Notes: generated by a model not told the origin, from the sequence alone. 38,565 nucleotides of DNA from Tepidiformaceae bacterium (GCA_051306275.1 JBPPMX010000281.1:1-38565), one strand, 5' to 3'; counted from the first letter of the stretch, positions 8,460-18,146 are shown. Numbers and translations are program-made.

Positions 8460-8921
8460 ATGAAGTGGGCTGCATTCGAGGGTCTGGAGCCGGAGTTGGC
8501 GGCGCTGGGGCGCGAGCGGTATGCGGGGACGGGGATCGCGATGCTGGGGACCGTGCGCCGGGATGGGAGCCCGCGGGTGACGCCACTCGAGGTGTTCATC
8601 GTGCGGGGGGAGCTGATGCTGGGGATGATGTGGCAGTCGATGAAGGCGCTGGACCTCGTGCGGGACCCGCGCATCGTGGTGCACAGCGTTGTGACGGCGA
8701 AAGCGGGGACGGACGGCGAGTTCAAGCTGCGGGGGAGGGGGAAAGGCGTGACCGACCCGGAGCTACGCGAGGCGTACGGGGACGTGCTCTGGGAGGAGCA
8801 GCAGTGGCGCCCGGAGGAGCCGTACCACCTGTTCGCGGTCGACATCGAGGAGGTGGCGTACGTGGTTTTCGAGGGCGAGGAGAAGCGTGTGCGGCTGTGG
8901 AGGGCGAGCGACGGAGGCTAG
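8460..8921 (+). CDS. Pyridoxamine 5'-phosphate oxidase-like (FMN/F420-binding split-barrel) family protein
   Basis: 153 aa. GTVRRDGSPRVTPLEVFIVRGELMLGMM...DPRIVVHSV fits the PNPOx-like split-barrel pattern. Confidence 0.6.
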   Translation: MKWAAFEGLEPELAALGRERYAGTGIAMLGTVRRDGSPRVTPLEVFIVRGELMLGMMWQSMKALDLVRDPRIVVHSVVTAKAGTDGEFKLRGRGKGVTDPELREAYGDVLWEEQQWRPEEPYHLFAVDIEEVAYVVFEGEEKRVRLWRASDGG

Positions 8922-9328
8922 AGGCGGCCGGCACTCGTCGGGGGCCAGTAGCGGAAACGGGCACGGCCGCGGAGCGAATCGCGGGGGACCCAGCCGAAGG
9001 TGCGACTGTCGGTGCTGTAGGGAGGGTTATCACCTTCGAGCCAGGCGGAGCCGTCAGCCGCGCGCACCCCGGTAATGCGCTTCACGAGGTCGTTTTCGGG
9101 CACGCGCGGGTCGGCGGCGATGGCGATGTGGCCGGGCGCCGGACCCGCGTGCACGTAGGCAGAACGATCGACGATGAGGAAGTCACCGGGGCGAAGTGTG
9201 GGGAGCATGCTTTCGCCGGCGACTTCGTAGCGAGAGAAGCGGCGGAGCATTCGAAGAAGGACGAGAAGGGTGAGAAGAAACGAAAAGGCGCGCCACAGCC
9301 GTGACACGCCTTTCCAGAGTTTCGCCAA
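8918..9328 (-). CDS. sodX: S26-family signal-peptidase-like Ni-SOD maturation protease (SodX)
   Basis: GESMLPTLRPGD (Ser nucleophile box), LVKRI (Lys box) and GDNPPYSTDSR box. It starts (TTG 9328 or GTG 9310) 5 nt after the sodN stop. Confidence 0.8.
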   Translation of the reverse strand: MAKLWKGVSRLWRAFSFLLTLLVLLRMLRRFSRYEVAGESMLPTLRPGDFLIVDRSAYVHAGPAPGHIAIAADPRVPENDLVKRITGVRAADGSAWLEGDNPPYSTDSRTFGWVPRDSLRGRARFRYWPPTSAGRL

Positions 9329-9333
9329 AGCCG

Positions 9334-9777
9334 TTAGCTGGCGCGGTAGAAGGGGACGTCGCGGCCCTTCGTTGCCCAGAAGATGTTGTGGATCTTCTCG
9401 ATGGCTTCGAGGAGGGCTTCGCCGTTGGCGGCGTCGCTTTCGGTCTTGTTCTTAGAGCCGAGCTTGGCAGCCTTCCAGAAGGTGTCGTGGAGGTCCGGGT
9501 ACTTCTCAAGGTGCTCGGGCTTGAAGTAGTCGTGCCAGAGGATGTTGAGTTCGCGCTTGGCGATCTCGGCCTGCTGCTCCTTGATCGCGATGAAGCGGGA
9601 GCGGGTGTTCTGGGTGGCGAGGTCCTGGCCATCACCGAGGGCGGCGAGCTTCTTCTCCATCGAGAGGACGGCTTCGGCGGCGATGCGGGCGGAGGCCGGG
9701 TCATAGACTCCGCAGGGGCCATCGCAGTGGGCGTGGGCGATGCGGGCGGGGCGAAGCAGATTGGTAACGAACGACAT
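9334..9777 (-). CDS. sodN: Nickel superoxide dismutase precursor (SodN)
   Basis: A 16-aa propeptide MSFVTNLLRPARIAHA is followed by the Ni-hook HCDGPCGVYDP. The rest is typical of the Ni-SOD four-helix bundle. An AAGGAG RBS precedes ATG 9777. Confidence 0.9.
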   Translation of the reverse strand: MSFVTNLLRPARIAHAHCDGPCGVYDPASARIAAEAVLSMEKKLAALGDGQDLATQNTRSRFIAIKEQQAEIAKRELNILWHDYFKPEHLEKYPDLHDTFWKAAKLGSKNKTESDAANGEALLEAIEKIHNIFWATKGRDVPFYRAS

Positions 9778-9837
9778 CAGGGGAGGGAACTCCTTGGTTG
9801 GATAGCCCCGTGCGCGGGGCGAGTAAAGACGTCGGTC

Positions 9838-9846
9838 AGTATAGCA
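9838..9846 (-). promoter_or_regulatory. Candidate extended -10 promoter element (TGCTATACT on the minus strand) for sodN-sodX
   Basis: The reverse complement of 9838-9846 reads TGCTATACT (TGn + TATACT). It lies about 55 nt upstream of the sodN ATG. The predicted 5' UTR contains the hairpin GCCCCG-TGCG-CGGGGC at 9805-9820. Confidence 0.3.
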
Positions 9847-9928
9847 AGCGCAGACTGGCTGTACGGCACTGCGGCGCGTTGCCGGGCGGGTGGGGCGAAC
9901 GTAAACTGACCGTGCAACGTCTCTACCC

Positions 9929-10471
9929 ATGATGCCTCTACCGTTGGGGCGTCGAGAGGATGGCCACTTGGCGTACAAGATCATCGACACGTGCATCGGC
10001 TGTACGGCCTGCACGAAGCGGTGCCCGACGAATGCAATCACGGGCGACCGGAACTACACGCACGTTATCGACCCGACGCTGTGCATCGACTGCGGCGCTT
10101 GCGGGATCGTGTGTCCGCCTGAGTCGATCCTGGACACGTTCGGGAATGTATGCCGGACGTACAAGAAGCAGGACTGGCCGAAGGCGGTTGTCATCGAGGA
10201 CAAGTGCATCGGCTCCGGGTGCGAACTCTGTATCAACATCTGCCCGTTCGATGCGCTGAGCCTTGAACACACCGGGCGGATCGACGATTTCTTCGGCGTG
10301 AGCACGGTGGACGAGAAGAAGTGCACCGGTTGCCGCCTCTGCGAGGATGTCTGCGGTTGGGATGCGGTCCACATCTTCCCGCTGAAGGACGAGGTCCTGA
10401 AGTCCATCGAGGAGCTCACGGAGCAGGAGATAGCGCTCGTAAAGCAGGCGAAGGCGAAAGTCACCGCCTGA
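9929..10471 (+). CDS. Ferredoxin-like protein with four 4Fe-4S cluster motifs
   Basis: CIGCTACTKRCP, CIDCGACGIVCP, CIGSGCELCINICP and CTGCRLCEDVCG. The start is uncertain (ATG 9929, or the in-frame TTG about 40 nt downstream). Confidence 0.8.
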   Translation: MMPLPLGRREDGHLAYKIIDTCIGCTACTKRCPTNAITGDRNYTHVIDPTLCIDCGACGIVCPPESILDTFGNVCRTYKKQDWPKAVVIEDKCIGSGCELCINICPFDALSLEHTGRIDDFFGVSTVDEKKCTGCRLCEDVCGWDAVHIFPLKDEVLKSIEELTEQEIALVKQAKAKVTA

Positions 10472-10497
10472 GGCCACGAGGTCTGTGACGACGACAC

Positions 10498-10527
10498 CAA
10501 CGAGGGGGCGCGCTTGCCCCCTCGTTG
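10498..10527 (+). terminator. Strong GC-rich hairpin (12-bp perfect stem, 6-nt loop) downstream of the ferredoxin gene, with no U-tract
   Basis: CAACGAGGGGGC-GCGCTT-GCCCCCTCGTTG begins 27 nt after the stop at 10471. Confidence 0.45.
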
Positions 10528-10638
10528 CGCGTCCCGAGGGGGTCGATGGTTGCGTTGCCGGAGTGCGAGCGGGTAGGATTGTTGACACGATCACTCGACT
10601 TTATCGAGCAGGCGTGCAGGGGCAACCAGGGCGAGCAA

Positions 10639-11076
10639 ATGCGAGTCTCAACACGAAGCGATTACGGGCTGCGCGCCCTGATCGAGCTCGCGGGGCACTA
10701 TGGTGCGGGGCCGCTGCAATCGTCGGAGATTGCGCTTCGACGGCACATCCCCGAGCAGTACCTCGACCAGCTCCTCACGACGCTCCGAAAGGCCGGGTTC
10801 ATCCGGTCGACGCGGGGGCCTGCAGGCGGCCATGAACTCCTGCGCGACCCGAATTCGATCACGGTGCGCGACGTCATCGAGTCGCTTGAGGGGAGCCTGG
10901 CGCCCGTAGCCTGGCTGGATGACCCGCCCGAAATGACCGATCACCCGCACAACTGCGGTCAGCGGGAGATCTGGGAGCGAATCCGTGAGGCGACGGCGGG
11001 AGTCCTTGATGCCTATTCGATCGGGGACCTGCTGGAGCGGGAACCGCAAGCGGCGGTCGGGAGGTACGTGATATGA
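10639..11076 (+). CDS. Rrf2-family transcriptional regulator (CymR/IscR class, lacking the 3-Cys cluster ligand set)
   Basis: MRVSTRSDYGLRALIELAGHYGAGPLQSSEIALRRHIPEQYLDQLLTTLRKAGFIRSTRGPAGG is the Rrf2 wHTH. There is only one Cys (HNCGQ). The stop overlaps the cysK start (ATGA at 11073-11076). Confidence 0.85.
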   Translation: MRVSTRSDYGLRALIELAGHYGAGPLQSSEIALRRHIPEQYLDQLLTTLRKAGFIRSTRGPAGGHELLRDPNSITVRDVIESLEGSLAPVAWLDDPPEMTDHPHNCGQREIWERIREATAGVLDAYSIGDLLEREPQAAVGRYVI

Positions 11077-12008
11077 CGGGACACACGACGCGGCCGGCAA
11101 TCGCTGGTTCGGCGCTGGAGCTGATTGGCGCGACGCCGCTGGTCCGCCTGAACCGGGTAGGACCGGATGGCGGCGCGACCATCCTGGGGAAGCTGGAAAG
11201 CATGAACCCCGGTGGGAGCGTGAAGGACCGGATCGCGCTGGCGATGATCGAGGCAGCGGAGCGCGATGGCCGGTTAGAGCCGGGCGACATCCTTGTTGAG
11301 CCGACATCCGGGAACACCGGGATCGGGCTGGCGATGGTCGCGGCGGTGAAGGGCTACCGGTTGATCCTGACGATGCCGGAGGACTTCTCGCTGGAGCGCC
11401 GACAGTTGCTGGAGCGCTACGGCGCTGAGCTTCATCTGACGCCCGCGATCGAAGGGATGACGGGCGCGGTGCACGCGGCTCAGCAGATCGTGAAGGAAGA
11501 GAAGCGGGCGTTCATGCCGCAGCAGTTCGAGAACCCGGCGAACCCGGAGATCCACCGGCAGACGACGGCGCTTGAGATCATCGAGGCGACGGGTGGGGCG
11601 GTGGACGCGTTCGTAGCCGGGGTTGGCACCGGAGGAACGATTACCGGAGTCGGGCAAGTGCTGCGGGACAGGGTCGGGGGACACGTTTTGATTGTCGCTG
11701 TGGAGCCTGCGCGATCGCCGGTGCTGAGCGGCGGACGGCCGGGGATGCACGGGATCCAGGGGATCGGGGCGAGCTTCGTCCCGGGCGTGCTGGACCGCGA
11801 GGTCTATTCCGAAGTGATGCGCATCGAAGACCGTGACGCGCTGGCGATGACACGCCGCCTGGCTCGCGAAGAAGGGCTGCTCGTCGGGATCTCGGCGGGC
11901 GCCAACGTGTTCGCCGCGGCGAAGATCGCGGAGAAGCTGGGCGCAGGAAAGACGGTTGTGACCGTGCTCTGTGATACCGGCGAGCGATATCTGACGGTGA
12001 CCATGTAA
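11073..12008 (+). CDS. cysK: Cysteine synthase A (O-acetylserine sulfhydrylase)
   Basis: NPGGSVKDRIALAMI (PLP lysine), EPTSGNTGIGLAMVAAVKGY, GVGTGGTITG; 311 aa. Confidence 0.9.
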   Translation: MTGHTTRPAIAGSALELIGATPLVRLNRVGPDGGATILGKLESMNPGGSVKDRIALAMIEAAERDGRLEPGDILVEPTSGNTGIGLAMVAAVKGYRLILTMPEDFSLERRQLLERYGAELHLTPAIEGMTGAVHAAQQIVKEEKRAFMPQQFENPANPEIHRQTTALEIIEATGGAVDAFVAGVGTGGTITGVGQVLRDRVGGHVLIVAVEPARSPVLSGGRPGMHGIQGIGASFVPGVLDREVYSEVMRIEDRDALAMTRRLAREEGLLVGISAGANVFAAAKIAEKLGAGKTVVTVLCDTGERYLTVTM

Positions 12009-12080
12009 GGTGATCTCTATCGACCAGCGTGGCGCGAGGAACGCAGCCACCCCAGCAATCGACCGCCGAAGGAGGCTTCG

Positions 12081-13187
12081 ATGACCATCAACGTGTACAT
12101 ACCAACGCCGTTCCGGCACCTCGTAGGGAACCGGGCGAGTGTGAAGGCCGACGGGGACACAGTCGCTGAAGTCCTGCGGGACGTGGACCAGCAGTTCCCG
12201 GGGTTCCGGGCGCAGCTCTTCGACGCCAAGGGTGAACTCGCGCAGCACATCAACGTGTATGTGAACCAGGTCGAGATCCAGACGCTGCAGGGCGAGAAGA
12301 CGGTACTCAAGCCGGACGACGAAGTGGCGGTCATCCCGGCGCTCGCCGGTGGCGCGGGGGCGACCCTGACGCCTGAGATGGTGGACCGCTACAGCCGTCA
12401 CCTGATCATGCCGCAGGTCGGGAGCGCGGGCCAGCGAAAGATCATCGAGTCGAGCGTGCTGATCATCGGCGCGGGCGGACTCGGGTCGCCGGTCGCGCTC
12501 TATCTCGCGCTGGCCGGTGTTGGGAAGGTCGGGATCATCGATTTCGACGTCGTCGACCGGTCGAACCTGCAGCGGCAGATCCTGCACCAAACTGAGGACA
12601 TCGGGAAGCGGAAGGTGATCTCGGCGCGCGAGACGCTGAACGCCCACAACCCGAACGTGAACGTTGTCGTGCACGAAGAGCCGCTGACCAGCGAGAACGC
12701 GTTCGAGCTTTTCGAGCAGTACGACATCATCGTGAACGGCGCGGACAACTTCGCGACCCGCTACCTCGCGAACGACGCGGCGTACCTGATGAAGAAGCCG
12801 CTGGTCGACGGATCGATTCTGATGTTCGACGGCCAGGCAACGGTCTACATCCCGGGGAAAGGGTGCTACCGCTGCCTCTACCCGGCACCGCCACCGCCGG
12901 GCATGGTCCCGAGCTGCGCGGAAGCCGGCGTGCTCGGGGCGATGTGCGCGACGATTGGGAGCATCCAGGCAACCGAAGTGCTGAAGCTGATACTGGAGGT
13001 CGGGGAACCGCTGGTGAACCGGCTGCTCCTCTACGACGCCCTTAGCCTCGAGTTCCGTATCGTGAAGGTGCGGCAGGATCCCGAGTGCCCGCTGTGCGGT
13101 GACAACCCGACGATCGACGCGCTCATCGATTACGAAGTGTTCTGTGGGGCTCCACTGCCTCACGCACTCGAACCTGCGGGCGCATAG
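12081..13187 (+). CDS. Fusion protein: N-terminal MoaD/ThiS/CysO-like beta-grasp ubiquitin-like domain (ends ...PALAGG at aa 90-91) plus a MoeB/ThiF/MoeZ-type E1-like adenylyltransferase without a rhodanese domain
   Basis: Ubl part: VAEVLRDVDQQFPGFRAQLFDAKGEL...INVYVNQVEI...DEVAVIPALAGG. E1 part: RYSRHLIMPQVG, IIGAGGLGSP, DFDVVDRSNLQRQ, SCAEAGVLG, and CYRC...CPLC zinc motifs. A GAAGGAGG RBS sits 6 nt before the ATG. Confidence 0.85.
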   Translation: MTINVYIPTPFRHLVGNRASVKADGDTVAEVLRDVDQQFPGFRAQLFDAKGELAQHINVYVNQVEIQTLQGEKTVLKPDDEVAVIPALAGGAGATLTPEMVDRYSRHLIMPQVGSAGQRKIIESSVLIIGAGGLGSPVALYLALAGVGKVGIIDFDVVDRSNLQRQILHQTEDIGKRKVISARETLNAHNPNVNVVVHEEPLTSENAFELFEQYDIIVNGADNFATRYLANDAAYLMKKPLVDGSILMFDGQATVYIPGKGCYRCLYPAPPPPGMVPSCAEAGVLGAMCATIGSIQATEVLKLILEVGEPLVNRLLLYDALSLEFRIVKVRQDPECPLCGDNPTIDALIDYEVFCGAPLPHALEPAGA

Positions 13188-13201
13188 CTCAGAGACGAAC
13201 G

Positions 13202-13221
13202 AGGGGGCGGGCGACGCCCCT
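13202..13221 (+). other. GC-rich hairpin between the Ubl-E1 gene and cysO (possible attenuator or mRNA-stability element)
   Basis: AGGGGGCG-GGCGA-CGCCCCT (one bulged G). It is preceded by the same AACGAGGGGGCG 12-mer seen at 10499-10510. Confidence 0.3.
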
Positions 13222-13249
13222 GGCAATCCCAGATGAGAAGCGAGTAGGT

Positions 13250-13543
13250 ATGACTGCGACTGCCCCGACCATCCAGGTGCGTGTGACCGCTGTGCTCCAG
13301 AAGCTAACCGGCGGCGAGAAGTCGGTTGAGGCCTCCGGTGGGACGATCGGTGATGTGCTCGAAGACGTCGACCGACGCTACCCCGGCTTCAAGGCCCAGA
13401 TGTTCGGCGACGATGGCAAGCTGCACCGGTTCGTGAATGTCTACCTGAACGACGAGGACATCCGCTACACGGGTGGGACGGAGACGGCAGTGAACGCTGG
13501 CGACCGGCTCGACATCCTCCCGGCTCTTGCGGGCGGCGCCTGA
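13250..13543 (+). CDS. cysO: MoaD/ThiS-family sulfur-carrier protein, CysO-like, C-terminus ...ILPALAGGA
   Basis: 97 aa and clearly paralogous to the fused Ubl (DVDRRYPGFKAQMFGDDGKL...VNVYLNDEDI...DRLDILPALAGG). It lies immediately upstream of cysM. Confidence 0.75.
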   Translation: MTATAPTIQVRVTAVLQKLTGGEKSVEASGGTIGDVLEDVDRRYPGFKAQMFGDDGKLHRFVNVYLNDEDIRYTGGTETAVNAGDRLDILPALAGGA

Positions 13544-14507
13544 CCGGCCCGGCACTGATGCTGTGACCCTCTATCGATCTGTCCTGGACCTGATCGGGAA
13601 CACCCCGCTCGTGGAGTTGCAGTCGCTCGCTCCGCGCCCGGATGTGCACGTATACGCGAAGCTCGAAGGGCAGAACCCGACGGGTTCGGTGAAGGACCGG
13701 ATCGCGAAGTACATGATCGAGGCAGCGGAGTCGCGAGGCGACCTGAAAAAGGGCGACACGATCCTCGAACCGACATCGGGAAATACCGGGATCGGGCTCG
13801 CGATGATCGGGCGGGTGAAGGGCTATCACGTCGTGTGCGTGATGCCGGAGAACGTGAGCGCGGAGCGGACCCAGCTCCTGCGGGCGTTCGGGGCGGAGAT
13901 CATCTACACGCCGGGCGACCTCGGTTCGAACGGGGCGATCGCACACGCGAAGCAAGTGGTGGCAGAGAACCCGGGGCGCTACTACTTCCCCTACCAGTAC
14001 GGGAACGAAGCGAATCCTCGAGCCCATTACGAGACGACGGGGCCGGAGATCATGCGCGACCTCCCCCAGACGACGGTCTTCGTGGCAGGCCTTGGCACGG
14101 GCGGGACGCTGACCGGGACAGGACGCTACCTGAAGGATCAGAACCCCGCGATCCGGGTGATCGCGGCGGCACCGCACCCGGGGGATGCGGTCCAGGGGCT
14201 GCGAGCGCTCGAGGACGGGTTTATCCCGGAGATCTTCGATGAGTCGGTCCTCGACGGGAAGATCGTTGTGGATAGCGCTTCGAGCTTCGCGATGTCGAAG
14301 GACCTGACGCAGCGCGAGGGGCTGTTCGTGGGCGTTAGCTGTGGCTCGGTGGTGAAGGCGGCGCTGAAGGTGGCAGAACGGCTGCCCGGCGAGCAGCACA
14401 TTGTGTGTCTGCTGGCGGACGGTGGCTGGAAGTACCTTTCTTCGAACCTGTGGACGACCGAGTGGGAAGACCAGCCCGAGGATGTCGAGAGCAAGATCTG
14501 GTGGTAG
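13527..14507 (+). CDS. cysM: Cysteine synthase B-type PLP enzyme (CysM, predicted thiocarboxylate-dependent)
   Basis: NPTGSVKDRIAKYMI, EPTSGNTGIGLAMIGRVKGY, GLGTGGTLTG. The start is TTG 13527 (overlapping cysO) or GTG 13563. Confidence 0.85.
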   Translation: MRAAPDRPGTDAVTLYRSVLDLIGNTPLVELQSLAPRPDVHVYAKLEGQNPTGSVKDRIAKYMIEAAESRGDLKKGDTILEPTSGNTGIGLAMIGRVKGYHVVCVMPENVSAERTQLLRAFGAEIIYTPGDLGSNGAIAHAKQVVAENPGRYYFPYQYGNEANPRAHYETTGPEIMRDLPQTTVFVAGLGTGGTLTGTGRYLKDQNPAIRVIAAAPHPGDAVQGLRALEDGFIPEIFDESVLDGKIVVDSASSFAMSKDLTQREGLFVGVSCGSVVKAALKVAERLPGEQHIVCLLADGGWKYLSSNLWTTEWEDQPEDVESKIWW

Positions 14508-14589
14508 GCGGTCAGGAGGCCGGGGCGGTTTCCCGTTGGGGCAGCGCGGGTGATCCTCAGCATCACTACGTGATGGCAGGTATGCGTTC

Positions 14590-16062
14590 ATGACGGATCG
14601 CCGGGTGCTGATGGTTGCGCTGGACGGACTCGAGATCTCGGTGCTCCGCCGGGCGATGGCGGCGGGCAGACTGCCGAACCTGAAAGCGTACGCCGAGGCG
14701 GCGACCGAGCTCTCGGTGCAGTCGGACGGTGAGCGGCTTGAAGGAACGGTCTGGCCGACGTTCACGACCGGCACGCCACCGGGACATCACGGACACCACT
14801 GGTTCTTCCAGTGGGCGCCCGACGAGGGGCGTTTCATCGACACGGCGGACGAGCGGTTCGCGGTGACGCCGTTCTGGAAGGCGGCGACATCGGTGGGGAA
14901 GCGTGTGACGGTCTTCGACCTGCCATATACGCTCCCGACAGGCGACGCGAGTGAGCGGTTGTTCACCGGTTGGGGAGTCCAGGACGAGATGGCGCAGCAT
15001 GCGAATCCGCCGTCGTTCAAGCGCGAGATCATCAAGAAGCACGGGCGGAGCAAGGTAGAGAAGGACACGCTCCTGGTGCGGACGCCGGAGGACCGGTTGA
15101 AGCTGGCCCGCCGGATGCGGGCGGGCGCGAGACAGCGATCACGCGTGCTGGTTGACCTGGCAGGACGCCGGGACTGGGACCTGATGCTGTTCGGGTTCGG
15201 GGAGTACCACCTGAGCGGACACCACCTCGCGATGCCGATGCAGCTTTCGCCGAAGGTCGACAACGAGGCCGCGATGATCGGCACCCTGCAGCCGATCGAC
15301 GATGCGTGGCCGGAGATCGTGAAGGCGGCGGGCGACGACTGCGATATCTTCCTGTTCGCGCTCCACGGCATGCAGCCGAAGGTCTCGTACCCAGAAGCAG
15401 TGCAGCACGTCCTGGAGGAGATGCAGGGCAAGCCACAGGCAGGGCCGCCAAAAGACGACATCCTCCGGAAGGCGCGAAACCTCATGCCAGAGAGCGTGCA
15501 CCGCGCCATCTGGCTTCGGCTGCCAGCCTCGATGCGACTCCAACGGATGATCCAGGCGTGGATGGCGAGGATGGACGTGGAACACGACCCGGTGTTCGTC
15601 CTCGAGGGGGACTGCGCGGTCGCGCTCCGGGTAAACGAGGAGGGACGGGAGAAGTACGGGGTCGTGCCCGCCAGCGAATCCCGGGCGATGCTCGACCGCG
15701 TGTTCGCCGAGGTTGGGCGCTATACCACCCCGGACGGCGAACTACCGTTCGTCGATATGCTGGTGACGAGCGAGATCTTCCCCGGGCCGCGGAGCTACCT
15801 TCTCCCGGATGGGATGCTCATCTACAACCCGGCGGTACAGGGACTGCGCGAGATGACGCGAGACGACGGCTTCAAGGTGGAGCTGGTCAATCCGACAAGC
15901 CGGAACGGGATCCACACCGGGACGGGGTTCGCCTTCTACCGGCCGGGGACCGAGACAACGGTAAAGCGAGACGAGATCGACAACCTCGACTTCGCTCCGA
16001 CGGCACTCAAAAGGCTCGGCGTCGAGCCGGGCCCAGCACTCACGGGAACGCCATTCGCCTAG
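14590..16062 (+). CDS. Alkaline-phosphatase superfamily protein (type I phosphodiesterase/nucleotide pyrophosphatase-like)
   Basis: N-terminus VLMVALDGLEISVLRRAMAAGRLPNLKAY...TVWPTFTTGTPPGHHG matches the metal-ligand and nucleophile region of the family. Confidence 0.6.
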   Translation: MTDRRVLMVALDGLEISVLRRAMAAGRLPNLKAYAEAATELSVQSDGERLEGTVWPTFTTGTPPGHHGHHWFFQWAPDEGRFIDTADERFAVTPFWKAATSVGKRVTVFDLPYTLPTGDASERLFTGWGVQDEMAQHANPPSFKREIIKKHGRSKVEKDTLLVRTPEDRLKLARRMRAGARQRSRVLVDLAGRRDWDLMLFGFGEYHLSGHHLAMPMQLSPKVDNEAAMIGTLQPIDDAWPEIVKAAGDDCDIFLFALHGMQPKVSYPEAVQHVLEEMQGKPQAGPPKDDILRKARNLMPESVHRAIWLRLPASMRLQRMIQAWMARMDVEHDPVFVLEGDCAVALRVNEEGREKYGVVPASESRAMLDRVFAEVGRYTTPDGELPFVDMLVTSEIFPGPRSYLLPDGMLIYNPAVQGLREMTRDDGFKVELVNPTSRNGIHTGTGFAFYRPGTETTVKRDEIDNLDFAPTALKRLGVEPGPALTGTPFA

Positions 16063-18146
16063 GTAGCAGCTGCTGCCAGCGAACGGTTGATGTACGCGCG
16101 GGCAAGGTGAAGCTGCTCGTAGGAAACGGCTTCGCCGAGGGACTCACGGAGTGGGGCGAGGGCGCCCACAGCCTCACCGTTGGCAGCCCGGCGAATCCGG
16201 GCAAGGAGCGGCGCGTCGACCCACGGGGAGATGTCGTCGATTTCCCCGGCGGTCACTAGCTGGGCGAGGTGGGCCGCGATCGTGCTGGCGTTCAGGCCGC
16301 GCTGGGCGACGATCTCTTCGAGTGCTTTGCCTTCTCGGTAGAGTTCGAGGGTGCGGCGGACGGTCGCGCCGAGTTCGGAGCCGTCGCGGGCGCGGGTGCC
16401 CTGGGGGCGCGCCGAAGCGGCAGCCGGGGTCCGGACAGCCTGCTCGGCGGGCGCGGACGCACGGGTGAGCGCGAGGAATGCCTCGCCGTAACGCTCCCAC
16501 TTCACTCGACCGACCCCGGTCACCTGGAGCATCTCGTGCTCGGTGCGCGGGCGAGCGGCGGCCATGGCGCGAAGGGTAGCGTCCGCAAAGATGACGTAGG
16601 GCGGGACGTCCGCGTGGCTGGCGATCTGGCGGCGGAGCGCGCGGAGGGATTCGAAGAGGTCGGAGTCGACGCCCGGGACGACGTTCGCGGCTGCGGCGGG
16701 CGGGGCGACACATGGGCCGCAATTCCCACACGCGGGCGGGTGTCCAACATCACCGAAGTAGTCGAGGATGCGGGTACGGAGGCAGGTGGCGGACTCGGCG
16801 TACGACTGGATTGAATCAAGCTTGTGGACCGCGTGGGCGCGATGGGCTTCGAGGCCCTTGAGGTCGATCGAGTCTTCGCCATCGGTGCGGACCGGCCAGA
16901 CCATCTGCCCGCGGCGGCCGGCAAGGCCAGAATCGACGAGCGCCTGGACTGCGGCGTTGATGCCAGGCTCCTCGTCGCTGGTCATGACTTCGCGGATGTG
17001 GACGCGATCCCCAGCGCGGACGAGCGCACGGTAGACATCGAGTACGGTTTCGGGCGCCGGATGGGCGAGGTCGATGAAGAACTCCCGGAGGGACCGATCG
17101 CGGGGCGCGTAGAGAAGGATGCATTCGGCTGGCTCGCCATCACGGCCGGCGCGGCCCGCCTCCTGGTAGTACGACTCCATCGAGTCGGGGAGGTCGTGAT
17201 GGAAGACGAGGCGGATATCCGGCTTGTCGATGCCCATTCCGAAGGCGTTCGTCGCGACAATGACACGCACCGAGTCACGCGCAAAGGCGTCCTGGATGCG
17301 GCGGCGGTCGGCGTCTTCCATGCCTGCGTGGTAGCGGGCGCAGCGCACGCCAGCGCGCTGAAGGGCATCGGTAACTTCCTCGGTCTTCTTGCGGGTCGCG
17401 CAGTAGACGATTGCGGACGCGTCCTTCAGGGCCTTGATGCGCTCGGCGATGATTGGGAGCTTGTCCTTCTGGTTGCGGACGCGAATGACATCGAAGCGAA
17501 GGTTCGGACGGTCGAAGCCGGCAACGTGTACGTCGGGCGAGCGGAGCTCCAGCCGTTCGATGACATCGGCGCGGACGCGCGCGTCGGCGGTCGCTGTGAG
17601 GGCGACGATCGGGGGGTTCCCGATGGCAGGCCGGACACGAGCGAGGTCGCGATAGGAGGGGCGAAAGTCGTGGCCCCACTGGGAGATGCAGTGCGCCTCG
17701 TCAATGGCGAGGAGGGCGACGCGCATCCCACGGAGGACGGACATGAAGGCGCCGTCGTCGAAGCGTTCGGGGGCGACGTAGAGGAGGCGAATCTGTCCCG
17801 AGCCAGCTTCGCGGAGGGTCGCGAGCTGGTCGTCGCGGGACATCGACGAGTTGATGGCGGCCGCGGCGACGCCGGCATCGCGAAGGGCGTCGACCTGGTC
17901 TTTCATGAGCGCGAGAAGCGGCGAGACGACCAGCGTGAGCCCCTCCGTGTTGACGAGCGCCGGGAGCTGGTAGCAGATGCTCTTGCCCGCGCCCGTTGGC
18001 ATCACGGCAAGGGTGTCGTGGCCGAGGAGGACGCTGGCGATGACGTCACGCTGTCCGGGGCGGAACTCGGTGTAGCCGAAGGTCTCCCGGAGGACAGCGC
18101 GGGCGGAGGCGAGGAGGCGGGATTCGGGGTCCAGGACAGCGGTCAC
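16059..18146 (-). CDS. recQ: ATP-dependent DNA helicase RecQ with zinc-binding, HRDC and an extra C-terminal HTH-like domain
   Basis: MPTGAGKSICYQLPA, LLAIDEAHCISQWGHDFRPSY, Cys cluster CLRT...CGNCGPC, an HRDC block (VPPYVIFADATLRAMA) and a C-terminal tail (NASTIAAHLAQLVTAGEI). Confidence 0.9.
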   Translation of the reverse strand: MTAVLDPESRLLASARAVLRETFGYTEFRPGQRDVIASVLLGHDTLAVMPTGAGKSICYQLPALVNTEGLTLVVSPLLALMKDQVDALRDAGVAAAAINSSMSRDDQLATLREAGSGQIRLLYVAPERFDDGAFMSVLRGMRVALLAIDEAHCISQWGHDFRPSYRDLARVRPAIGNPPIVALTATADARVRADVIERLELRSPDVHVAGFDRPNLRFDVIRVRNQKDKLPIIAERIKALKDASAIVYCATRKKTEEVTDALQRAGVRCARYHAGMEDADRRRIQDAFARDSVRVIVATNAFGMGIDKPDIRLVFHHDLPDSMESYYQEAGRAGRDGEPAECILLYAPRDRSLREFFIDLAHPAPETVLDVYRALVRAGDRVHIREVMTSDEEPGINAAVQALVDSGLAGRRGQMVWPVRTDGEDSIDLKGLEAHRAHAVHKLDSIQSYAESATCLRTRILDYFGDVGHPPACGNCGPCVAPPAAAANVVPGVDSDLFESLRALRRQIASHADVPPYVIFADATLRAMAAARPRTEHEMLQVTGVGRVKWERYGEAFLALTRASAPAEQAVRTPAAASARPQGTRARDGSELGATVRRTLELYREGKALEEIVAQRGLNASTIAAHLAQLVTAGEIDDISPWVDAPLLARIRRAANGEAVGALAPLRESLGEAVSYEQLHLARAYINRSLAAAAT

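Follow-up and report, generated by a model that had tools for sequence, protein, structure and literature searches.

The delivery of sulfur to cysteine by a protein thiocarboxylate is established in Mycobacterium tuberculosis, where the pathway comprises CysO, CysM, MoeZ, and Mec+. Protein-thiocarboxylate carriers are the prokaryotic ancestors of ubiquitin, and the E1 enzymes that activate them are the ancestors of the ubiquitin-activating enzymes. Here, we analyzed a 38,565-nucleotide stretch of DNA from a Tepidiformaceae bacterium (Dehalococcoidia, Chloroflexota; GCA_051306275.1, JBPPMX010000281.1:1-38565; hereafter the window), in which a CysO-like ubiquitin-like (Ubl) domain and an E1 adenylyltransferase are encoded by a single open reading frame (ORF). 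The diglycine that ends this carrier domain is internal to the protein. We propose, with a probability of about 0.55, that the fused domain is a CysO-type carrier that would be freed by cleavage after G91.

The locus shares several features with the M. tuberculosis pathway. Both copies of the carrier are CysO-like, CysM is a full-length orthologue, and the E1 is of the MoeZ/MoeB type with the IDYExFCG motif. The assignment to the CysO/CysM thiocarboxylate route, made in a preliminary description of the sequence, holds. In contrast to the M. tuberculosis pathway, the E1 of the window lacks a rhodanese domain and has an additional carrier at its N-terminus, the free carrier ends with GGA, a Mec+ (JAMM) gene is absent from the locus, and the cassette additionally encodes CysK and an Rrf2 regulator. 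The actinobacterial operon also contains ClpS and a helical protein (PMC1779556, row 4d); neither belongs to the five conserved genes of the cassette, although no search aimed at them was made in the window.

The fusion type is also known. Iyer, Burroughs & Aravind reported Ubl-ThiF fusions in 2006, mainly from thiamine operons with a second, solo ThiS; the fused Ubl of this family was called "distinct from ThiS", and a Pelobacter case was located beside a cysteine synthase and an O-acetylhomoserine sulfhydrylase (PMC1779556). Makarova & Koonin (2010) described a "Ubl-E1-TBP" in Thaumarchaeota that is shared with bacteria (PMC2948915). As in these fusions, the Ubl of the window lies N-terminal to a Rossmann-fold adenylating domain, and a second, solo Ubl is present in the operon. 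In contrast to the 2006 fusions, this Ubl is CysO-like, and its context is CysK/CysM rather than thiamine. The preliminary description was correct that Ubl-E1 fusions had been noted in comparative genomics; in the open-access literature searched, we found no biochemical or structural study of any of them.

Sulfur-carrier domains fused to other enzymes provide precedents for cleavage. MoaX of M. tuberculosis, a MoaD-MoaE fusion, is active only once an unidentified protease has cleaved the bond from Gly82 to Ser83 (PMC4326299). For the MoaD-MoaE fusion of D. radiodurans, cleavage by DRJAMM was reported (PMC8832034). In both, as in the window, an internal GG ends the sulfur-carrier domain and the partner enzyme follows directly. 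However, the partner in these proteins is the downstream, sulfur-accepting MoaE, whereas in the window it is the upstream, activating E1, and the cleavage is predicted. HcyS-Ala/HcyD of Wolinella and QbsE/QbsD of Pseudomonas are systems in which carriers with C-terminal extensions are trimmed by JAMM peptidases, for the synthesis of methionine or a siderophore. Similar termini are found in the free carrier of the window (GG followed by Ala), in those of its relatives (GG followed by 0–2 residues), and in split operons elsewhere (GG followed by 1–5 residues, with a JAMM). In contrast to the HcyS and QbsE systems, no peptidase is linked to the window cassette.

Domain structure and integrity of the fusion

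A strong Shine-Dalgarno sequence, GAAGGAGG, is located 5–12 nt 5′ of the ATG of the fusion ORF (Table 1). Residues 5–91 of the encoded protein correspond to ThiS (E 2.2e-12) and residues 104–337 to ThiF (E 5.5e-83) in Pfam, which detected no rhodanese domain. The fused Ubl (aa 1–91) matched M. tuberculosis CysO (PDB 3dwg_C, E 2.1e-12), and the E1 part matched E. coli MoeB (PDB 1jw9_B, E 1.9e-49) and ThiF (E about 1e-49); the search against solved structures returned no PDB chain spanning both domains. This is the architecture that had been read from the sequence in the preliminary description, i.e., a 91-aa ThiS/MoaD domain ending with PALAGG (aa 86–91) and a complete MoeB/ThiF E1 without rhodanese. 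The five E1 motifs named there (GAGGLGSP, DRSNLQRQ, CAEAGVLG, CYRC, and CPLC) were all found at the positions given. The linker length of about 6 residues given there needs correction: the linker comprises only A92–T95, because residue 4 of MoeB aligns with L96. A separate E1 translated from the internal start M100 (ATG 12378) was considered and rejected as unlikely, since this Met is not conserved in diverse fusions.

An AlphaFold2 (AF2) run on 36 close homologues gave a poor model of the fusion, with a predicted local distance difference test score (pLDDT) of 59.9, and was repeated with a more diverse, 40-sequence alignment. The resulting model had a mean pLDDT of 90.9 and a predicted template modeling score (pTM) of 0.75. 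A beta-grasp-like pattern of strands and helices was observed at aa 1–86, and the pLDDT of the Ubl was about 87–97, which, together with the CysO match, agrees with the beta-grasp fold expected for the N-terminal 91 residues. The confidence of the linker was intermediate, and the last eight residues were disordered. The E1 part of the model superposed on ThiF/MoeB with a template modeling (TM) score of 0.95–0.96 (Foldseek).

The fusion was also scored against NCBIfam models, each with its own cutoff. The fusion scored 377 bits with the MoeZ equivalog (cutoff 647), where only model positions 6–275 of 392 were aligned, and was also below cutoff for PRK08762 (378 vs. 449 bits), PRK07411 (344 vs. 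633), and TIGR02355 (207 vs. 377). It exceeded the cutoff of the MoeB subfamily PRK05690 by a small amount (277 vs. 266 bits). Close homologues, from metagenome-assembled genomes named Dehalococcoidia, Tepidiformaceae, or Chloroflexi, are annotated by NCBI as "molybdopterin-synthase adenylyltransferase MoeB". This name and the PRK05690 score would fit a plain MoeB that activates MoaD for molybdopterin synthesis, with the fused Ubl as MoaD and the cysteine genes as coincidental neighbors. A role shared with molybdenum cofactor or thiamin synthesis is also conceivable, as MoeZ-type E1s serve several carriers (PMC3227635). Nevertheless, we regard the plain MoeB as very unlikely. The fusion does not reach the cutoff of any equivalog model for MoeB, MoeZ, ThiF, or UbaA, and the best solved relative of both Ubls is CysO (3dwg_C), not MoaD. 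Moreover, the cassette with CysK, CysM, and the CymR-like regulator is conserved as a unit in four close relatives (L001, L088, L092, and L093; L numbers denote the loci compared), where it is flanked by unrelated genes. No moa genes were present among the called genes of the related loci examined, with the rest of the window not systematically annotated. Across phyla, the fusion travels with cysteine-synthase-family and JAMM genes (see below).

The fusion could in principle be a pseudogene or an artefact of assembly or sequencing, in which neighboring cysO and moeZ genes were joined through a lost stop codon or a frameshift. In Acidobacteriota, one change of frame at the junction is indeed all that separates fused from split forms, so individual metagenome-assembled genomes could carry junction errors. 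For the window, this explanation is effectively excluded. The identical 368-aa ORF was found on contigs of three independent assemblies, which answers the concern about an artefact raised in the preliminary description. ThiS and ThiF were present in one protein in all but one of the 120 homologue clusters listed (90%-identity clusters; 78–86% identity), and the junction is conserved among the close homologues as GG-A-x(2-3)-[LM]TPEMV. In the alignment of 36 homologues, the Ubl contains long invariant stretches, PALAGG with its GG is invariant, and the next residue is Ala, or Ser in one sequence. Among 118 close homologues, the residue after GG is Ala in 116, and the linker has 4 aa in 87. These alignments indicate strong purifying selection on both halves of the fusion.

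The C-terminal tail of the E1 (window 13149-13184), which is disordered in the AF2 model, varies among the homologues. The window copy ends with ...EPAGA, whereas 60 of the 120 close homologue clusters listed end exactly with ...[AS]PIP-x(3-4)-P[FTNV]GG. The ...P[FTNV]GG tail consists of the 12 residues after IDYExFCG, so that the E1 itself terminates with a diglycine, at the position where MoeZ-type enzymes have the rhodanese domain. In seven genomes, the presence of this terminal GG on the E1 showed no correlation with a free carrier that ends exactly with GG.

Fused and split carriers in other genomes

A full-library HMMER search with aa 1–150 of the fusion returned 1,901 proteins at E≤1e-10. 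Among the best 150 matches, about 90 were fusions across the junction (33–79% identity), and ...P[AS][ILVM]AGG was kept in nearly all of them. The internal GG was invariant in 15 diverse fusions; linkers in the diverse fusions were of low complexity and 2–30 aa long. Over all fusions compared (33–86% identity), the internal GG is therefore invariant or nearly so, whereas the linker varies.

The genomic context of such fusions was surveyed in one genome per GTDB species. ORFs were mapped by BLAST and custom hidden Markov models (HMMs), and representatives were checked with Pfam. Ubl and E1 were encoded by one ORF in 27 loci, which came from Chloroflexota, Acidobacteriota, Gemmatimonadota, Bacteroidota, Eisenbacteria, and a Thermoplasmata archaeon; the scan returned fused loci from further groups as well. 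A Prok-JAB (JAMM) peptidase with the canonical HSHPxxxxxPSxxD motif (PF14464, E 1e-19 to 1e-25) was encoded within 4 kb in 24 of these loci, and a cysteine-synthase-family enzyme within 4 kb in 19. In 20 of the 27, the fusion continued into a C-terminal rhodanese domain, giving ThiS+ThiF+Rhodanese proteins of about 480–500 aa in which IDYExFCG precedes the rhodanese domain. A free Ubl was found in one locus only (L007), the survey locus closest to the window; the fused domain is thus the sole carrier beside a JAMM in 23 of the 27 loci. Co-occurrence with a solo Ubl therefore holds for the window clade, but for 1/27 fused loci in this sample. The survey of distribution and synteny called for in the preliminary description accordingly confirmed that the fusion is widespread, and it is a more ordinary architecture than had been implied there: it is common and real, and is mis-annotated as MoeB.

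In a typical fused operon, a CysM-like gene is followed by the JAMM gene and then by the Ubl-E1-rhodanese gene, with the fused domain as the sole carrier. Split loci have the same gene order, with the Ubl and the E1 as separate adjacent genes, and their Ubl ends with GG and 0–5 extra residues (GG, GGC, GGNIV, GGTAR, etc.). Fused and split forms interleave in a neighbor-joining tree of the Ubl domains, and at the junction they can differ by reading frame alone. This was observed in Acidobacteriota, where the carriers of the split loci L076 and L066 end with ...SIAGGLC* and ...SIAGGAR*, respectively, and the E1 starts at once in the +2 frame, while in the fused locus L014 the junction is read through as ...SIAGGSALTAAEPATLSKEEIQRYSRH. 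The survey thus adds that, in most lineages, the fused Ubl is the sole carrier beside CysM and JAMM and toggles with split forms. We found no such statement in the literature searched.

Several Chloroflexota loci bridge these operons to the window. L090, on a 1.87-Mb Dehalococcoidia contig, has the core Rrf2, CysK, ThiS+ThiF fusion, ThiS, and CysM, followed by a rhodanese (292 aa), a 131-aa protein without a Pfam domain, and a Prok-JAB peptidase (145 aa). Its fusion has 382 aa with an 18-residue linker, and its free ThiS has 93 aa and ends with GGSR. The identities to the window are 72% for the E1, 72% for CysK, 67% for CysM, 51% for the fused Ubl, and 53% for the free Ubl. L091 has the same core as the window, with a JAMM gene 5 kb downstream. 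L087 has the same operon as L090, including the rhodanese, the small protein, and the JAMM, with an unfused E1 (290 aa) and a carrier that ends with GGS. In the other Chloroflexota loci, a JAMM gene is likewise always near the fusion. In L008, the order is Rrf2-CysK-fusion-JAMM. In L015, the JAMM gene follows the fusion, and in L009 and L007 it is located 2.5 kb and 3.4 kb downstream, respectively. A JAMM is thus in or near the operon in L090, L091, L087, and L007.

In the Ubl tree, the fused Ubl of the window clusters with the fused Ubls of L001, L088, L007, L090, and L091, and then with those of L008 and L009 and the free Ubl of L038. The free Ubl of the window and the free carriers of L001, L088, L090, L091, L087, and L007 make up an orthologous group of their own. 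Because the fused and the free Ubls group apart, the two paralogues are old and separately maintained.

The fusion of L091 (2182-3657) is 491 aa long, and its ...IDYDAFC is followed by about ten tandem copies of QRRQEHRAN. These may be a real extension or a frameshifted read-through of a tandem repeat in the DNA.

Proposed release of the carrier after the internal diglycine

The preliminary description was logically correct in stating that the internal GG could not be adenylated unless it is released. It left three functions open for the fused domain, namely a cleavable second carrier, a cis-regulatory or decoy domain, and a self-modification substrate. The comparative evidence favors the first, because the fused domain is the sole carrier, with a JAMM adjacent, in most surveyed loci, and because fused and split forms interleave; in the window clade itself, the domain may be released in the same way. 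The 2006 study had arrived at a role other than carrier, whereas the wider survey (23/27 loci with an adjacent JAMM and no free carrier) points to a cleavable carrier. What was observed directly is the identity of the domains, the structure of the operon, the conserved GG, and the linkage of the fusion to JAMM and CysM in other lineages. Cleavage after G91 is proposed for the window on the basis of this comparative pattern and of the precedents for sulfur-carrier fusions. The cleavable precursor is more probable for the JAMM-linked fusions of other phyla than for the window locus.

The predicted sequence of events is as follows. The E1, of the MoeZ/MoeB type and without rhodanese, would be translated as a precursor with the CysO-like carrier at its N-terminus. 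A GG-specific peptidase, most likely a JAMM/Mec+-type metallopeptidase encoded outside the window, would then cut after G91 and yield a 9.9-kDa carrier ending with ...VIPALAGG and a 29.7-kDa E1 starting with AGATLTPEMVDR.... The same activity would strip Ala97 from the free carrier. Next, the E1 dimer would adenylate the exposed C-terminal Gly of the carriers, and the adenylate would be converted to the thiocarboxylate by sulfide, or by persulfide from a stand-alone rhodanese acting in trans. CysM would condense the thiocarboxylate with O-phosphoserine, and the peptidase would finally free cysteine and regenerate the carrier. Three elements of this scheme are inferred: the cut itself, the source of the sulfur, and the enzyme to which the fused-type carrier delivers it. 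For the fused and split operons as a family, JAMM would strip anything past the diglycine, i.e., 1–5 residues in the split forms and the whole E1 in the fused forms.

As encoded, neither Ubl of the window has GG at its very C-terminus, since the free copy ends with GGA and the GG of the fused copy is internal. The free paralogue located 62 nt downstream of the fusion ORF was correctly recognized in the preliminary description (42% identity to the fused domain, E 3e-27). It is not, however, a ready GG carrier, because it ends with GGA, and Ala97 would have to be removed before adenylation. Orthologues of the free carrier end with GG, GGA, GGAS, GGAH, GGS, or GGSR. The variation of these termini within the clade (GG, GGA, GGAS) and the Ala after GG in both paralogues lend indirect support to a trimming activity.

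In the MoeB-type E1s, the N-terminal helix provides an arginine to the ATP site of the partner protomer. As only a few residues precede this helix in the fusion, the tethered Ubl could be pre-docked in trans.

Several observations weigh against release of the fused domain in the window. No JAMM (Mec+-type) peptidase was found in the 38.5-kb window by motif search, or in the window and L001–L004 by tblastn and a custom HMM, and the window contains no rhodanese; the preliminary description had not remarked on the lack of these two expected pathway components. Neither a JAMM nor a rhodanese was found within 10 kb of the cassette in L001, L088, L092, and L093. In two homologue searches with Dehalococcoidia JAMM proteins, none of the best 120 matches shared a contig with the fusion clusters. 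A separate free carrier adjoins CysM in all seven clade members examined (window, L001, L088, L092, L093, L090, and L091), so CysM does not depend on the fused copy for a carrier, and the fused copy could serve a different function. The linker has only 4 residues and a conserved length, and the pTM of 0.75 hints at a fixed domain arrangement. In the open-access literature searched, we found no experimental cleavage of any Ubl-E1 fusion.

These observations would be accommodated if the fused Ubl were a permanent, uncleaved accessory domain and the free 97-aa paralogue were the real CysO of the Dehalococcoidia clade. Such a domain might gate or occupy the carrier site of the partner protomer, stabilize the dimer, or dock the E1 on CysK/CysM. 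The two separate, anciently diverged orthologous groups of fused and free Ubls would then reflect subfunctionalization, and the overall confidence of the AF2 model would be expected. Iyer et al. reasoned likewise for ThiS-ThiF fusions found alongside a solo ThiS (PMC1779556). We consider this, the main alternative, less probable than release. It is not evident why a permanent domain should end with an invariant GG before a variable linker. Furthermore, the same fused-type Ubl is the sole carrier in the JAMM-containing L008, L009, and L015 of related Chloroflexota, and is a free gene in L038. In L090 and L091, both paralogues are present and the operon contains or adjoins a JAMM gene, and linkers as short as 2–3 aa occur together with a nearby JAMM in L015 and L009.

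Given the lack of a linked peptidase and rhodanese in the clade and the tail with a terminal GG on many homologous E1s, a more unusual arrangement retains a low probability. The cassette would have shed both the rhodanese and the JAMM, and the Ubl would never be released, but would act as a permanently tethered beta-grasp, docked either across the dimer of the E1 or on CysK/CysM. The sulfur relay would then be new, and one candidate is the flexible tail at the end of the E1, which in half of the close homologues terminates with ...P-x-G-G. This tail might itself be adenylated and thiocarboxylated and replace the rhodanese persulfide. We regard this combination as unlikely.

Ubiquitin is made as fusion precursors, from which it is freed by deubiquitinases. 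If our proposal of a cleavable carrier is true, a carrier made in one chain with its own E1 and released by JAMM would be a prokaryotic parallel to this. According to the survey, the design is common in several phyla, and it makes the testable prediction of cleavage after the internal GG. Natural variant pairs (fused vs. split, with or without rhodanese) are available for biochemical comparison. The practical gain is modest and consists of these variants and of better annotation of genes mis-named "MoeB" in databases. We regard the fusion as a modification of an established pathway, not as a system of a new kind, and it opens no new field.

The five-gene cassette and its surroundings

The preliminary description had delimited a module of the Ubl-E1 fusion, the free carrier, and CysM. 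These genes are confirmed, but the unit is larger, because CysK and an Rrf2/CymR-like regulator lie upstream and are translationally coupled. The region is a five-gene cysteine-biosynthesis cassette that encodes two routes to cysteine, a sulfide-dependent one through CysK and a protein-thiocarboxylate-dependent one through CysO/CysM.

Table 1. Positions of the cassette genes and of the features of the Ubl-E1 fusion in the window.
Feature	Position	Strand	Remarks
Rrf2-family (CymR-like) transcriptional regulator	10639..11076	+	145 aa; probable ATG 10639
CysK, O-acetylserine sulfhydrylase A type	11073..12008	+	311 aa; TIGR01139, PALP
Ubl-E1 fusion ORF	12081..13187	+	368 aa; 39.7 kDa; ATG start
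N-terminal CysO-like ThiS/MoaD beta-grasp domain	12081..12353	+	aa 1-91; 9.9 kDa if released
Internal diglycine G90-G91	12348..12353	+	predicted cleavage site GG/A; homologue conservation
Linker A92-G-A-T95	12354..12365	+	4 aa; L96 aligned with residue 4 of E. coli MoeB
MoeB/ThiF/MoeZ-type E1 adenylyltransferase domain without rhodanese	12366..13187	+	Pfam ThiF, PDB, Foldseek
GAGGLGSP	12468-12491	+	aa 130-137 of fusion ORF
DRSNLQRQ	12555-12578	+	aa 159-166 of fusion ORF
CYRC	12864-12875	+	aa 262-265 of fusion ORF
Cys loop CAEAGVLG	12915-12938	+	aa 279-286 of fusion ORF
CPLC	13086-13097	+	aa 336-339 of fusion ORF
IDYEVFCG	13125-13148	+	E1 domain; 12-aa tail after motif, then end of protein
Free CysO-type sulfur carrier	13250..13543	+	97 aa; ends ...PALAGGA; ThiS E 6.7e-16 (Pfam)
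Free-carrier C-terminus G95-G96-A97	13532..13540	+	sequence itself
CysM, orthologue of M. tuberculosis O-phosphoserine sulfhydrylase (Rv1336)	13563..14507	+	314 aa from GTG 13563

The ORF of the regulator is open from TTG 10525, and database matches begin at aa 39–42 of this long ORF; a 145-aa Rrf2 is encoded at the same position in L001, L088, L092, and L093. The regulator matched Rrf2 in Pfam (E 6.3e-35) and scored above the cutoff of rrf2_super in NCBIfam, while its score with the CymR model, 111 bits, was below the equivalog cutoff. Its stop overlaps the start of CysK. CysK scored 426 bits with TIGR01139 cysK (cutoff 351) and matched PALP with E 4.3e-74, and it is located directly upstream of the fusion in every clade relative. 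The free carrier scored 61.8 bits with SAMP1 (NCBIfam cutoff 60).

The CysM-type, pyridoxal phosphate (PLP)-dependent enzyme named in the preliminary description after the carrier proved to be a full-length match to M. tuberculosis CysM (PDB 3dwg_A, E 8.1e-92; 3dwg_A/3dki_A, E about 1e-91 over residues 1–313). An alternative start at TTG 13527 would give 326 aa; GTG 13563 is more probable, as CysM has 314 aa in L001, L088, L092, and L093. The Arg in "..GLRALEDGF.." aligns with the R of "..ALRNMDEGF.." in the M. tuberculosis enzyme and is presumably the equivalent of its phosphoserine-binding R220. The C-terminal ...IWW tail is also kept, and the score with cysKM was 359 bits (cutoff 344). CysM is therefore predicted to be of the O-phosphoserine sulfhydrylase type, with the substrate preference read from these features. 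In L001, an 83-aa ABM (antibiotic biosynthesis monooxygenase-like) gene (11553-11804) is inserted between the free carrier and CysM; this insertion is absent from the window, L088, L092, and L093.

A scan of 9800-16200 for promoters and terminators and an Rfam scan of the window gave nothing useful. Directly downstream of CysM (14590-16062, + strand), a 490-aa protein of the type I phosphodiesterase/nucleotide pyrophosphatase family is encoded (Pfam E 3e-12). It is probably unrelated to the cassette, because it does not occur at this position in L001, L088, L092, and L093. Just upstream of the cassette lie a nickel superoxide dismutase gene (8918-9328, − strand; Sod_Ni in Pfam for the same gene in L002) and an adjoining S26-family signal-peptidase-like gene (9334-10041, − strand), which look like the usual pair of SodN and its maturation peptidase. 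The pair lies beside a 4Fe-4S ferredoxin gene (9929-10471) and is not conserved in the relatives.

Two further gene groups were observed around the cassettes of relatives. A two-domain rhodanese (274–292 aa) followed by a 127–131-aa protein without a Pfam domain is encoded in L090 (8660-9935), L087 (8734-9968), and L006 (620-1851). The pair is located between CysM and JAMM in L090 and L087, and just upstream of the Ubl-E1-rhodanese fusion in L006; no homologue of either member was found in the window. The small protein may be an undescribed sulfur-relay component. In L090 (2246-4086) and L087 (2371-4191), a three-gene cluster directly upstream of the cysteine cassette encodes a PLP enzyme with a PALP domain (419–422 aa), a protein with a NIL domain (81 aa), and a ThiS-family carrier, the third in these loci. 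This cluster is absent from the window; in tblastn, the L087 rhodanese, 127-aa protein, 422-aa PLP enzyme, and NIL protein had no match there. The third carrier has 91 aa, ends with AGG, and contains the IPTPLR motif of the fused type. The cluster suggests a further thiocarboxylate-dependent reaction that is served by the same E1.

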